From contig NC_090327.1 of NCBI RefSeq assembly GCF_035084215.1, forward strand, positions 31,496,001 to 31,560,000: a stretch of 64,000 nt of DNA, in the 5' to 3' direction. This DNA comes from Heptranchias perlo. Taxonomy: Eukaryota. Under the pieces are notes generated by a model. It was given only the letters and a program-made list of their open reading frames with translations, had not been told where the DNA came from and did no database searches. Position 1 is the stretch's first letter. Every line of letters begins with the position of its first letter. Of the stretch, positions 58,501 to 59,554 are shown piece after piece. A program made the translations under genes and the position numbers.

Positions 58501-59554
58501 GATTGGAAGATTGAAAGAGTCCAATTAATCTATCAAAAAATAAAGTGGGATAGGGTCTCAAGTGTCAGCCTTGGCTTAATGATGCACTCTCACCTCTGAT
58601 TCGGATGGTTGTGGGTTCAAGCTCCACTACAGAGACTTGAGCATATAATCTAGGATAGCACTTCTGTGCAGTTCTGATGGAGTGCTGCACTATCTGAGGT
58701 GTTGTCTTTCAGATGAAACATTAAAGCGAGGCCCCACTGGCCTTCTCAGGTGGACGTAAAAGATACCCGGCACTATTCAAAGAGCAGGGAAGTTCTCCCA
58801 GTATCCTGGACAATATTTATCCCTCAGCCAACACAACAGATAATTTGGTCATTTATTTCATTGCTATTTGTGGGACCTTGCTGTGCACAAATTGGCTGCC
58901 CCGTTTCCTACATCAGAACAGTGACTACACTTCATTGGCTGTAAAGTACTGTGGAACATCCTGACGCTATGTAAATACAAGTCCTTCTTTCTTACATGCA
59001 GGACCCTCTTTTAATGTAAAGAATCCACAAATTAACAGGGAAGGAGAGTCTAGTGGCCAGTTTGGGTTTGGGGGGGGGGGGGGGGGGGGAAGAGAGAGGC
59101 TGGAGTTTTCATATTGTTACACACTCTCTCCTCCTCTTTTCCACCCCTCGTATTTTAGATTGGGAAAACAGGCTTATCAAAATTGTAATCAATATATTAA
59201 AATACCCCTCAATGCACACCAAAGTGGGCATATCTCTGCTCCCCATCCCAATAATTTTTTTTAGCACTGCACATAAAGAGGTTGTACAAAAAGAGAAACA
59301 TCAAAAGTAACATGACTTTTTTTAAAACTAAAGATGATACTATTACACAATAACTCTTCCCCATCCCAAACCCATTAATCTCACCATTTCCATTTATCTG
59401 CATCTTTTTTCTTCTCTTCCTCCCCTTTCAAATGGGTCTTGTTGCTTTTTTCCTCCTTCAATTTCTGCTTTTTCTCCTCCTTCTCTTTGACCTCGATCAC
59501 GTTCTTCTTTACATTCCCTGATTTCCTTCTCGGCACCTTGCATGCAGATGATGT
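14531..59554 (-). CDS. TOP1MT: DNA topoisomerase I (type IB), TOP1MT-type paralogue; spliced gene with 13 core exons plus alternative 5' exons
   Basis: Core exons of 116,122,123,188,145,144,186,69,115,128,95,150,103 nt join into one open frame with GT-AG introns. All five catalytic motifs are present: LALRAG (R), LGKDS (K), KVFRTY (R), LCNHQR (H), KLNYLD (Y). Confidence 0.93.
15314..15463 (-). CDS. TOP1MT: Topoisomerase I exon carrying the catalytic tyrosine ([50 protein letters not shown])
   Basis: 150 nt with AG/GT ends; SKLNYLDPR active-site motif. Confidence 0.96.
15820..16145 (+). mobile_element. CR1 LINE 3' end
   Basis: [22 protein letters not shown] sequence and a CCTATTCCTGT tail. 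Confidence 0.75.
16378..16472 (-). CDS. TOP1MT: Topoisomerase I linker exon ([32 protein letters not shown])
   Basis: 95 nt, CAG acceptor, GTAAGT donor, in frame with both neighbours. Confidence 0.93.
17085..17970 (+). mobile_element. Two CR1 3' ends (about 17085-17390 and 17520-17970)
   Basis: ORF 17547-17825 is near-identical to the C-terminus of ORF 3667-4518; TTCTATGATTCT tail. Confidence 0.85.
18680..18807 (-). CDS. TOP1MT: Topoisomerase I exon ([43 protein letters not shown])
   Basis: 128 nt with AG/GT ends; catalytic His motif LCNHQR. Confidence 0.95.
18955..19320 (-). mobile_element. CR1 LINE 3' end
   Basis: Same family as the copies at 15820 and 33480. Confidence 0.8.
20244..20358 (-). 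CDS. TOP1MT: Topoisomerase I exon ([38 protein letters not shown])
   Basis: 115 nt, TAG acceptor, GTAAGT donor; KVFRTYNAS motif. Confidence 0.95.
20553..20621 (-). CDS. TOP1MT: Topoisomerase I exon ([23 protein letters not shown])
   Basis: 69 nt, CAG acceptor, GTATGT donor. Confidence 0.94.
20715..21400 (-). mobile_element. DeuSINE-type tRNA-headed SINE interrupted by a CR1 3' end (about 20780-21055)
   Basis: Reverse-strand similarity to the SINE at 58565-58992: GCATTTATATAGCACCTTTCA tail at about 20720 and tRNA-like head at about 21340-21400. Confidence 0.7.
22085..22305 (+). mobile_element. CR1 LINE 3' end
   Basis: Near-identical to the 3' UTR at 7000-7210. Confidence 0.8.
23050..23235 (-). 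CDS. TOP1MT: Topoisomerase I exon ([62 protein letters not shown])
   Basis: 186 nt with AG/GT ends; catalytic Arg and Lys motifs. Confidence 0.96.
23615..23960 (-). mobile_element. CR1 LINE 3' end
   Basis: [23 protein letters not shown]. Confidence 0.8.
24000..26220 (+). mobile_element. Relatively young CR1 LINE, about 2.2 kb of ORF2 plus 3' UTR
   Basis: Collinear ORF fragments with [44 protein letters not shown] and KFADDTK; few disruptions. Confidence 0.92.
26730..27625 (+). mobile_element. CR1 LINE 3' fragment
   Basis: [43 protein letters not shown] tail. Confidence 0.88.
27837..27980 (-). CDS. TOP1MT: Topoisomerase I exon ([48 protein letters not shown])
   Basis: 144 nt, TAG acceptor, GT donor; translated by hand. 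Confidence 0.94.
28095..28500 (+). mobile_element. Old tRNA-headed SINE-like repeat; decayed relatives at about 16600-16780, 21800-21990, 30230-30350, 32620-32850, 36470-36825 and 43000-43310
   Basis: Recurrent ACTGAGCCATAYAGA..CCCAGGTTCAAT..GGTCTGTG..GAGTTAGCT head with a B-box-like GGTTCAAT, and a GCTGGAAAGTG-like core. Confidence 0.55.
30975..31119 (-). CDS. TOP1MT: Topoisomerase I exon ([48 protein letters not shown])
   Basis: 145 nt, CAG acceptor, GTATGT donor. Confidence 0.94.
32333..32520 (-). CDS. TOP1MT: Topoisomerase I exon ([63 protein letters not shown])
   Basis: 188 nt, CAG acceptor, GTAAGC donor; [10 protein letters not shown] motif. Confidence 0.95.
33480..35085 (-). mobile_element. 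CR1 LINE ORF2/3' UTR remnant
   Basis: [22 protein letters not shown] and RTRG.NLKIRAR motifs. Confidence 0.88.
37733..38344. mobile_element. Non-autonomous DNA transposon (MITE-like, possibly PIF/Harbinger)
   Basis: Imperfect terminal inverted repeats GGGAATTATTTTAGCATGG ... CCAGGCTAAAATTATGCCC around a GC-rich interior; no clear TSD. Confidence 0.55.
38754..38876 (-). CDS. TOP1MT: Topoisomerase I exon ([41 protein letters not shown])
   Basis: 123 nt, CAG acceptor, GTGAG donor. Confidence 0.94.
39200..39660 (-). mobile_element. Old CR1-like 3' end
   Basis: [23 protein letters not shown] in ORF 39462-39695. Confidence 0.65.
40250..40910 (+). mobile_element. Decayed 3' portion of the LINE family seen at 53396-56312
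   Basis: [11 protein letters not shown] and [11 protein letters not shown] motifs, and a GGGATGGGCAATAAA tail. Confidence 0.8.
41034..42343 (+). repeat. 241-bp near-perfect direct repeat (41034-41274 and 42103-42343) flanking a topoisomerase exon
   Basis: Direct reading: constant offset of 1069 with about 3 mismatches. Confidence 0.95.
41657..41778 (-). CDS. TOP1MT: Topoisomerase I exon ([41 protein letters not shown])
   Basis: 122 nt with AG/GT ends; [19 protein letters not shown] motif. Confidence 0.95.
42318..42737 (+). mobile_element. DeuSINE-type tRNA-headed SINE
   Basis: TTGGTTCAGTTGGTAGCACTCTC head, same body as 58565-58992, and a GTGCTATATAATTGCAA tail. Confidence 0.7.
43475..43510. 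repeat. (TA)n microsatellite
   Basis: About 18 perfect AT units. Confidence 0.95.
43990..44105 (-). CDS. TOP1MT: Topoisomerase I first core exon ([39 protein letters not shown])
   Basis: 116 nt, phase-2 CAG acceptor, GTGAGT donor; equivalent to TOP1 exon 9 / TOP1MT exon 2. Confidence 0.94.
49875..50290 (-). mobile_element. CR1 LINE 3' end
   Basis: Same family as 8125-8560. Confidence 0.8.
50839..50969 (-). CDS. TOP1MT: Candidate alternative first coding exon encoding a mitochondrial-targeting-like peptide ([44 protein letters not shown])
   Basis: ATG at 50969 with G at -3 and an in-frame TAA 15 codons upstream; 43 open codons plus 2 nt; perfect AG|GTAAGT phase-2 donor joining the 44105 acceptor in frame. 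The peptide is Arg/Thr/Ser/hydrophobic with one acidic residue, and the sequence is non-repetitive. Confidence 0.75.
51450..52980 (-). mobile_element. CR1 LINE with a plus-strand CR1 3' end (about 51692-52070) nested inside
   Basis: ORFs 52020-52409 and 52522-52716 on the minus strand; the insert is near-identical to 25855-26220. Confidence 0.88.
52980..58075 (-). mobile_element. CR1 LINE (about 52980-53395 plus 56313-58075) split by insertion of another LINE
   Basis: Host sequence continues across the insert (..GTCTACTCAA | TCTCTCCTCATA..); ORFs 56767-57045 and 57255-57731. Confidence 0.88.
53396..56312 (+). mobile_element. Near-complete 2.9-kb single-ORF non-LTR retrotransposon (APE endonuclease plus RT), distinct from the local CR1s; frameshifted
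   Basis: Endonuclease motifs [27 protein letters not shown] and SDH; RT motifs [32 protein letters not shown] and FADD; tail ..CCCATGAATGAATAAAAAAA. Confidence 0.9.
58078..58512 (-). mobile_element. CR1 RT fragment
   Basis: [17 protein letters not shown]. Confidence 0.8.
58565..58992 (+). mobile_element. DeuSINE-type tRNA-headed SINE
   Basis: tRNA-like head (GGTTGTGGGTTCAAGCTCCAC), Deu-domain-like body (GGAGTGCTGCACT..GTCTTTCAGATGA..CTCAGGTGGACGTAAAAGAT) and GCTATGTAAATACAAGTCCTTCTTT tail. Confidence 0.75.
59385..59554 (-). CDS. TOP1MT: Lys/Glu-rich N-terminal-domain exon homologous to nuclear TOP1 exon 8 ([57 protein letters not shown])
   Basis: 170 nt open; T-rich acceptor ending CAG; phase-2 TG|GTGAGA donor that rebuilds KWKW-WEEE with the 44105 exon. 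Confidence 0.85.

Follow-up and report, generated by a model that had tools for sequence, protein, structure and literature searches.

According to reviews and a dedicated evolutionary study, vertebrates divide type IB topoisomerase between TOP1 in the nucleus and TOP1MT, whose N-terminus is short and whose location is exclusively mitochondrial (PMC10081982, PMC8455175). The window analyzed here, a 64,000-nt stretch of contig NC_090327.1 of the shark Heptranchias perlo, raises the question of whether a TOP1MT-type gene with a charged, nuclear-type exon provides this species with a second nuclear type IB topoisomerase, as a first-pass annotation made from the letters alone had proposed.

Two N-termini on one catalytic core

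The charged exon reads on the minus strand (59554-59385), an orientation added by the follow-up to the earlier description. As described, its 170 nt are open, entered in phase 0 and left in phase 2; an AG acceptor and a GT donor flank the exon. The translation (57 codons, 20 Lys/Arg and 11 Asp/Glu) contains all three of the basic clusters and, at its end, the Lys/Trp motif, for which a six-frame reading of the window shows no second copy. The last Trp codon is completed across the splice, the exon supplying the equivalent of human W203 and two bases of that of W205; in human TOP1, residues 1-205 are encoded by exons 1-8 (PMC2770673). The donor scored 7.9 (gene's own core exons, 3.0-10.3), a value reached by 48 of the 3566 GT sites on the minus strand of the window, and the acceptor scored 8.2 (core exons, 1.0-13.4), a value reached by 79 of the 4517 AG sites. 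A Pfam search of the exon returned no domain. In RefSeq, the exon corresponds to aa 298-354 of H. perlo isoforms X1-X3, the 297 aa N-terminal to it being encoded beyond the window edge (>64000). The features of the gene are as follows.

59385..59554, minus strand: charged exon, 170 nt, last of the long N-terminus (contig borders, splice sites, RefSeq match)
50839..50969, minus strand: internal alternative first exon, coding part of 131 nt, phase-2 donor (joined reading = P0011; contigs)
48591..48740 (approximate ends), minus strand: minor cassette exon of RefSeq isoform X4 (tblastn only, low confidence)
47859..47978 (approximate ends), minus strand: minor cassette exon of RefSeq isoforms X5/X6 (tblastn only, low confidence)
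43990..44105, minus strand: core exon 1, 116 nt, with the acceptor common to both N-termini and the W206 equivalent
41657..41778, minus strand: core exon 2, 122 nt
38754..38876, minus strand: core exon 3, 123 nt
32333..32520, minus strand: core exon 4, 188 nt
30975..31119, minus strand: core exon 5, 145 nt
27837..27980, minus strand: core exon 6, 144 nt
23050..23235, minus strand: core exon 7, 186 nt
20553..20621, minus strand: core exon 8, 69 nt
20244..20358, minus strand: core exon 9, 115 nt
18680..18807, minus strand: core exon 10, 128 nt
16378..16472, minus strand: core exon 11, 95 nt, linker
15314..15463, minus strand: core exon 12, 150 nt, with the catalytic Tyr Y872 (= human Y723)
14531..14633, minus strand: core exon 13, 103 nt, coding part with stop

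All 13 core exons were mapped with AG/GT ends, as in vertebrate TOP1/TOP1MT, and the exon structure agrees exactly with the RefSeq isoforms; the exon sizes presumably equal those of the human exons. The long form is a type IB topoisomerase of 914 aa with a 354-aa charged N-terminus and all three clamp Trp residues (352/354/355, aligning with human 203/205/206). In the short form (604 aa), a 44-aa basic, presequence-like peptide is joined to the common core; this form has the third clamp Trp only, with Arg replacing the second. The two 5′ ends are mutually exclusive, both ending in phase 2 on one shared core. Topoisom_I_N, Topoisom_I, and Topo_C_assoc all scored above the Pfam cut-offs in P0008 and P0011, and the catalytic residues R637, K681, R739, H781, and Y872 align with human R488, K532, R590, H632, and Y723 (human numbering from PMC10081982 Table 3, via the stand-in P0090).

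The internal first exon had been missed by the first-pass annotation and was found in the follow-up. Its ATG is preceded by an in-frame stop, its peptide is basic and acid-poor, and aligning peptides are present in seven other elasmobranch short forms. Contigs carry its 5′ side out to 51045-51070 (records 7 and 17); no CpG island was found at this exon (o/e, 0.21-0.53).

Both N-termini are represented in contigs from four of 17 listed runs (X1, X2, X5, and X6; at most three samples from two studies), which we guess to be RNA. The earlier concern that no transcripts might include the charged exon was not borne out, as spliced-looking contigs carry it. In run X2 (record 16), a contig stops at both exon borders with non-genomic letters on either side, and in run X6 a contig ending at the exon borders (record 32) has ~1,730 letters on the core side, the core CDS measuring 1,684 nt. 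The internal first exon is covered in runs X1 and X5, with 26 to 27 loose letters on the core side only. Exon use was read from contig ends at the borders, not from letter-by-letter junctions; the contig joints listed (15 of 485) are all repeats, and the 15.8 kb compared includes LINE repeats. The internal first exon bin had no contig cover in runs X2 and X6, and in run X5 its contig was deeper than that of the charged exon. Because neither contig absence nor contig depth proves anything, tissue-specific use is not claimed.

Position of the gene relative to TOP1MT and TOP1

Heptranchias has a separate TOP1 (P0050), which falls inside the TOP1 clade (97/95* and 99/95*) together with chimaera and skate TOP1 and has a core 77.5% identical to that of the window gene. 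The shark gene, lungfish TOP1MT, and tetrapod TOP1MT form one clade in two careful trees (94/95 and 87/95, both unstarred), each placing the shark gene with TOP1MT in species-tree order. Joining the shark gene to TOP1 was rejected in the 33-row tree (AU P = 0.004) and not rejected in the 34-row tree (AU P = 0.11), the former being the latter minus 8 rows (long, partial, or redundant) plus 7. A quick 63-row fallback tree left the relation of the window gene to TOP1MT open. Diagnostic columns, read against one outgroup, divide into four favoring shark plus TOP1MT and five favoring shark plus TOP1, and the first 146 core residues are 67 to 70% identical to TOP1s and 64 to 66% to tetrapod TOP1MTs. 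TOP1MT from ray-finned fish, coelacanth, chimaera, rodent, and human was not among the sequences compared. The trees favor, with moderate support, a place for the window gene beside the TOP1MT of lungfish and tetrapods.

An alternative with the same two-isoform design is that the shark gene represents a third genome-duplication copy that kept its PLCG1-like neighbor, rather than the orthologue of tetrapod TOP1MT. A PLCG1-like gene does lie directly downstream, an order which we take to be that of human TOP1 and PLCG1; the lack of a star on the TOP1MT-clade support, the equivocal site counts, and the existence of a third type IB gene in frogs (P0204, top1.2) point the same way, as does the fact that NCBI names most shark models "-like." The species-tree order recovered in both careful trees speaks against it, as do the rejection of a union with the frog third gene (AU P = 0.009) and a short/long design at a splice position identical to that of tetrapod TOP1MT. 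Moreira et al. also entered the Chiloscyllium long form as TOP1MT in their published set, and, as a weaker point, the matches listed (120 rows per search) include no second shark gene that might be TOP1MT. We consider a third copy unlikely, although it is the strongest competitor of TOP1MT orthology.

Predicted addresses and spread of the long form

The basic clusters of the charged exon had been described as NLS-like. This did not hold up: only one classical monopartite match is present in the exon, whereas shuffled versions average 1.9 (P = 0.89), and the first cluster is not conserved across 11 shark and ray long forms. The clusters are neither enriched nor conserved and are not a demonstrated NLS. 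The whole 354-aa tail has six classical matches, with no enrichment in the exon; near the core, shark tails have 0 to 3 compared to 5 to 7 in TOP1. The long N-terminus begins acidic, unlike a presequence. Across nine elasmobranch species, the frame of the tail is open, with 52 to 76% identity and a conserved internal block. The tail evolves fast, its length ranging from 200 to 900 aa among the long forms. Alignment of the exon with the TOP1 N-terminus recovered the shared terminal motif but no detectable homology beyond it. Homology was likewise undetectable between shark and tetrapod tails, an HMM of nine shark tails reaching at best 2.5 bits on 57 other N-termini (shuffles, 2.1); amniote tails are homologous to one another. 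The ESM Atlas gave no match for aa 60-180. As to the short N-termini, all 13 have 5 to 9 Lys/Arg and 0 to 1 Asp/Glu, and none of the 13 has a hydrophobic moment above that of shuffles.

Taken together, these data make it likely, in our judgment, that the gene is a shark TOP1MT of two-promoter, dual-address type in which the Trp clamp cluster, too, is switched by the choice of exon. The two 5′ ends would arise from two promoters of one gene. The tail of the long form is probably nuclear, with import via basic motifs spread along it, and this form may relax chromosomal DNA as TOP1 does. We infer that the short form carries a mitochondrial address in its internal first exon, by which it would reach mitochondria. 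Since exon choice sets the N-terminus, both address and Trp cluster would change. This cluster governs clamp closure and rotation, so that one core would yield two enzymes, of which the nuclear one would bind more tightly and the other, compatible with mtDNA, more loosely. The role of the cluster and the loss of two Trp residues in human TOP1MT have been described (PMC2770673), and nucleus-directed human TOP1MT binds chromosomes poorly. More tentatively, the long form may be biased to the germline or oocyte, and the arrangement may be ancestral to jawed vertebrates and its long form lost in primates.

The proposal of a second nuclear-type IB enzyme from a TOP1MT-type gene thus appears to hold, as far as sequence can tell, a separate Heptranchias TOP1 being present; it is not, however, peculiar to this species, the long form being widespread in jawed vertebrate gene models. 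Predicted TOP1MT isoforms that combine a charged tail with a full Trp cluster are known from rays, lungfish, amphibians, reptiles, and birds and, among mammals, from monotremes, marsupials, donkey, rhino, colugo, and anteater; none of 13 primate rows has one, nor do the eight stingray/manta-type cluster members examined. Of the 119 TOP1MT-like rows among the matches listed, 69 have a long, charged N-terminus with Trp-x-Trp at its end and 30 a presequence-like one; one query favored long forms, and the breadth rests mostly on predicted gene models. At least nine species, ranging from shark to wallaby, have records of both forms. The statement that mammalian TOP1MT lacks the first two Trp residues is correct for the short isoforms but not for the long ones of platypus, marsupials, donkey, colugo, rhino, and anteater, the motif being kept in the long form from sharks to placentals. 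The presence of the long form in gene models of sharks, frogs, birds, horses, and colugos suggests that the human mitochondria-only version is a later loss.

That the long form is transcribed yet yields no functional nuclear enzyme, being a relic or a by-product of the germline, appears less probable still than a third gene copy: the fast evolution of the tail, its absence from the primate and stingray/manta-type sequences, and the poor performance of the human TOP1MT core on chromosomes would fit, but the open frame and conserved block in nine sharks and rays, the preserved Trp motif, and the nuclear location in Xenopus of the protein assigned to top1mt-like.L (see below) argue otherwise. It is very improbable that the exon is an artefact of annotation or that it lies inside the only, mitochondrial product of the gene. 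The isoforms are indeed predicted RefSeq models, and one Scyliorhinus model fuses the tail with part of the presequence exon; against this, the charged exon precedes the presequence exon, whose ATG has an in-frame stop ahead of it, the long N-terminus has its acidic start, and each exon is separately backed by contigs. The least credible reading, that the gene is simply canonical TOP1 and the exon its ordinary exon 8, draws on the PLCG1-like neighbor, the matching boundary and motif, and the one AU test that shark plus TOP1 survived, but is refuted as stated by the position of P0050 within the TOP1 clade and of the window gene outside it in three trees, in line with the limited core identity and a tail without the His-rich start of TOP1; at most, the window gene could be a sister copy of TOP1, as under the third-copy explanation.

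Comparison with known enzymes and the Xenopus oocyte

Human and mouse TOP1MT have 14 exons and 601 aa (PMC10081982, PMC8455175). The shark gene resembles them in its 13-exon core, in a short basic first exon whose junction with the core immediately precedes the W206 equivalent, in the length of its short form (604 aa), and in its moderately supported grouping with TOP1MT in trees. It differs in having a further, upstream 5′ end that brings a charged tail of 354 aa and completes the set of three clamp Trp residues, whereas human TOP1MT is described as exclusively mitochondrial, with a short N-terminus only. With nuclear TOP1 (human and P0050) it shares a charged tail, an identical Trp motif and boundary, and the conserved catalytic residues, but it belongs to another clade, and its tail is longer (354 versus about 207 aa), less charged (net +2 versus +15 to +24), devoid of the His-rich start, and alignable only at the last residues. 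UNG1/UNG2 and DUT acquire a dual address via alternative first exons. TOP3A does so via alternative start codons (PMC8455175). In all of these, as proposed here, one catalytic core is combined with an N-terminus that picks the nuclear or mitochondrial isoform; the shark switch differs in also adding or removing two catalytically relevant Trp residues and in belonging to a paralogue found alongside a TOP1 dedicated to the nucleus.

A long TOP1MT form is already present in RefSeq models, and a dedicated evolutionary study's own TOP1MT set contains long isoforms; the literature searched, which excluded most subscription papers, yielded no account of such a long isoform or of a nuclear one. In Xenopus laevis oocytes, the nuclear fraction of a protein known by gene name only as "top1mt-like.L" is 0.71, compared to 0.08 for top1.1.L and 0.11 for top1.2.S; from 13 h on it is 0.75 to 1.0, and its abundance is highest in the oocyte (PMC9537182 supplements). 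The long X. laevis TOP1MT model has a calculated mass of 127.8 kDa and TOP1 one of 97.4 kDa. A 165-kDa oocyte-specific topoisomerase I was reportedly described in this species by Richard and Bogenhagen (~1989-1991). That enzyme is large, of type IB, and separate from the TOP1 of somatic cells, and top1mt-like.L is oocyte-enriched and nuclear; for the two to be identical, the lower mass of the model would require anomalous migration or a longer isoform. The lampbrush/oocyte papers searched did not mention the 165-kDa enzyme, and the supplements of PMC5688136, PMC6050040, and PMC8416026 contained nothing on top1mt.

A broader reading, which we regard as evenly poised between right and wrong, is that TOP1MT is not mitochondria-only in most jawed vertebrates. 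An upstream promoter kept since the shark/bony-fish split would produce a large nuclear, oocyte- or germline-enriched type IB enzyme (in Xenopus, the 165-kDa enzyme), the mitochondrial form would stem from a gained internal first exon that stripped two clamp Trp residues, and primates would have shed the nuclear form recently, once they had diverged from colugos, with relics of the upstream exons remaining. Should the long form be nuclear, a second nuclear type IB enzyme would be hidden in many vertebrates under a "mitochondrial" label. The mitochondrial enzyme would then have originated by addition of a first exon to a full nuclear gene whose nuclear part was lost later, the gene would be a candidate for the large frog oocyte topoisomerase I, and its two forms would offer a natural on/off test, on an identical core, of the Trp-cluster strand rotation model. 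How one reads work in frog, chick, or horse with camptothecin or with top1/top1mt knockdown would also be affected; the camptothecin-contact residues checked are conserved in the window gene.

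Two N-termini on one catalytic core

The topoisomerase gene of the window, the PLC-gamma exon beyond its 3′ end and two simple repeats are as follows.

59554-59385, minus strand: charged exon, 170 nt, open, AG acceptor and GT donor, phase 0 in and phase 2 out
50969-50839, minus strand: internal first exon, start of four isoforms (X4-X7)
44105 to 14531, minus strand: common core, in all isoforms, normally 13 exons (116, 122, 123, 188, 145, 144, 186, 69, 115, 128, 95, 150 and 103 nt)
1162-1380, minus strand: PLC-gamma gene, first coding exon, with a better match to PLCG1 (E 2e-20) than to PLCG2 (E 1e-11)
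43475-43510: (AT)18
59070-59089: G20

The open exon, its phases and its terminal Lys/Trp motif, all proposed in the first-pass annotation, were confirmed; no second copy of the motif exists in any of the window's six reading frames, and the splice-site scores of the exon are comparable to those of the core exons. Its translation matches exactly a segment of a Heptranchias perlo RefSeq protein, "DNA topoisomerase I, mitochondrial-like," the sole match among 1,525 candidates. The proposed NLS-like clusters fared less well: basic clusters are present, yet they are what the composition yields (one classical monopartite NLS match versus 1.9 in shuffles), and the first is not conserved across 11 shark and ray long forms.

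The protein cluster of the gene comprises nine RefSeq isoforms. X1 to X3 (864 to 914 aa) have a charged N-terminus that ends with the charged exon and whose first 297 residues (263 in X2) are encoded outside the window, while X7 joins the internal first exon directly to the core, giving 604 aa. Either set of 5′ exons ends in phase 2, so that the codon finished by the opening base of the core encodes Trp in the long form and Arg in the short form. Long-form Trp 352, 354 and 355 correspond to human Trp 203, 205 and 206, of which the short form has only the last. All five catalytic residues are intact and three Pfam domains score above cut-offs. Isoform X3 (P0003) skips the 150-nt exon 15463-15314 with the catalytic Tyr and would thus be inactive if made.

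In the internal first exon, the ATG is preceded by an in-frame stop, and the exon can be aligned with the short N-termini of seven other sharks and rays. Presequences are basic and nearly free of acidic residues; so are all 13 short N-termini examined, which are basic and almost acid-free, with amphipathicity above shuffles in none of the 13. In two invertebrate-like proteins, P0217 and P0309, short basic N-termini meet the core at the position of the vertebrate presequence exon, reflecting either a presequence exon that predates vertebrates or read-through into a retained intron.

Seventeen sequencing runs matched the charged exon (none recorded as RNA, 15 guessed to be RNA), and the contigs of four (runs X1, X2, X5 and X6, numbered independently of the isoforms) were compared with 43900-59700. 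Transcript-like contigs including the exon were found in guessed-RNA runs X2 and X6. A 458-nt contig from run X2 fits exactly 59382-59556 and is flanked on both sides by other letters; a 1,940-nt contig from run X6 fits 59382-59550 and extends ~1,730 letters further toward the core, which, against a core CDS of 1,684 nt, suggests a spliced long mRNA, as judged from lengths and exon borders rather than from junction letters. Contigs from runs X1 and X5 fit 50837-51045 and 50837-51070, with 26 to 27 loose letters on the core side only, as expected of a first exon.

Low-depth contigs from runs X1 and X2 also traverse 44078-48800, through the intron that precedes the first core exon and holds two minor cassette exons in the RefSeq annotation; these contigs represent either a retained intron or an additional weak start. 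Many LINE-type reverse-transcriptase-like ORF fragments, presumably of a CR1-like family, occupy ~3670-11400 and ~49200-59100, regions with very deep, divergent contig cover in the four runs.

Orthology of the gene

Heptranchias has a separate canonical TOP1 (P0050, 767 aa, on a 55-Mb contig), 77.5% identical to the window gene over the core. In all three trees, P0050 fell inside a TOP1 clade supported above the tree's threshold and the window gene outside it, in an equally supported elasmobranch clade, which argues against its being simply the canonical TOP1. The two careful trees, the second of which took in an Old World monkey on the TOP1MT side, joined this elasmobranch clade with lungfish and tetrapod TOP1MT at 94/95 and 87/95, below the threshold, in line with the TOP1MT type originally proposed. 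The AU test did not reject placing the gene with TOP1 in a 34-row set (p=0.11) but rejected it in a set of 33 rows in which long and partial ones had been replaced (p=0.004). The Chiloscyllium gene appears as TOP1MT in the gene list of Moreira et al. 2023 (PMC10081982). We regard the window gene as very probably the TOP1MT orthologue. The PLC-gamma gene, whose first coding exon lies 13 kb past the topoisomerase stop in the same orientation, probably represents a duplicate of PLCG1 that was retained, which is relevant to the orthology.

A Mustelus protein (P0059) carries the name "DNA topoisomerase I, mitochondrial" yet fell within the canonical TOP1 clade, which makes database names a poor guide to these two genes. 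In frogs there is a third type IB gene (P0204 in Engystomops, top1.2.S in Xenopus laevis); it has a charged tail of its own and clusters with lamprey on the side of TOP1, away from both TOP1MT and the shark gene.

Distribution of long and short forms

Long forms are recorded in sharks, sawfish, skate, electric ray and lungfish. A search centred on the wallaby protein gave 119 rows for analysis among 120 listed (one beetle row removed): 69 of the 119 had a charged N-terminus ending Trp-x-Trp, a ratio that is not a frequency because the query contained the charged end and favoured long forms; 30 were presequence-like and 20 other, including tamandua and rhino long forms below the charge cut-off used. 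The long rows span frogs, newt, caecilian, turtles, crocodilians, lizards, birds, platypus, echidna, marsupials, donkey and colugo. Among the primates, the 13 named rows (seven species), cluster representatives among the matches listed, included no long form; one may hide as a non-representative cluster member, as for Heterodontus. Both forms are recorded in Heptranchias, Heterodontus, Chiloscyllium plagiosum, Pristis, Leucoraja, X. tropicalis, Pogoniulus, platypus and wallaby.

The long tail is 52 to 76% identical among nine elasmobranchs, and amniote long tails are mutually homologous. The shark tail gave no match to amniote tails or to that of TOP1 past the last residues; the case for a common origin of the shark and tetrapod tails is therefore one of position and motif rather than alignment. 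Within the otherwise variable elasmobranch tail, a strongly conserved block (aa ~118-160 of the 914-aa product P0008, encoded outside the window) had no match in Pfam or the ESM Atlas and is a candidate binding motif.

Taken together, we consider it likely that TOP1MT is a two-promoter gene with a nuclear-type long isoform that databases label mitochondrial across jawed vertebrates and that seems to be missing in primates. The second nuclear type IB topoisomerase suggested for Heptranchias thus stands insofar as a second type IB gene with a nuclear-type long isoform exists beside P0050, but it is no peculiarity of one species, extending from sharks to placentals. TOP1MT is presented as short-tailed and exclusively mitochondrial in the available parts of PMC10081982 and PMC8455175, yet long isoforms from Chiloscyllium (814 aa) and X. 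tropicalis (1,149 aa) stand uncommented in the TOP1MT list of the former. The literature searched yielded no account of an isoform that is long or nuclear; papers behind subscription, the original exon-structure paper among them, and bioRxiv supplements lay outside this scope and may bear on it.

All eight members examined of one ray cluster (P0026; Mobula, Hypanus, Hemitrygon, Pristis) were short. No stingray or manta long form was among the matches listed, in contrast to sawfish, skate and electric ray, for which one is recorded; loss or missing annotation is possible. A further protein, P0469, has a core 99.8% identical to Chlorocebus TOP1MT and a 22-aa N-terminus, joined directly to it, that aligns with residues 57-76 of the long tail in colugo (60%, E 1e-10) and may be a remnant of the upstream exons that an Old World monkey still transcribes.

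Tryptophan clamp and proposed nuclear location

The clamp is governed by Trp 203, 205 and 206 of TOP1, two of which human TOP1MT lacks, and TOP1 placed in mitochondria depletes mtDNA, according to PMC2770673. First-exon choice in the shark gene couples gain or loss of two clamp Trp to a presumed change of address. One core would accordingly yield a tighter-binding nuclear enzyme (long) and a looser mitochondrial one (short), and shark TOP1MT would work like other dual-address genes. The poor chromosome binding of human TOP1MT (PMC2770673) calls for caution regarding a nuclear long form, although it was measured without the tail and in a lineage where no long form was found.

In the X. laevis proteome of PMC9537182, with three type IB entries, the oocyte nuclear fraction was 0.71 for top1mt-like.L versus 0.08 for top1.1.L and 0.11 for top1.2.S. 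That of top1mt-like.L was 0.75 to 1.0 from 13 h onward, and its relative abundance was 2.38 in oocytes versus 0.65 in eggs; top1.2.S, the third frog gene, rises from oocyte to egg. Top1mt is also among the entries of an oocyte RNP pull-down (PMC8861640). From its name and by exclusion, top1mt-like.L would be the long TOP1MT; shared peptides could blur its identity. A 165-kDa oocyte-specific topoisomerase I, reportedly obtained in purified form from X. laevis about 1990, is not known to have been assigned to a gene. The X. laevis long TOP1MT, a 127.8-kDa model, is a candidate for the gene encoding this enzyme.
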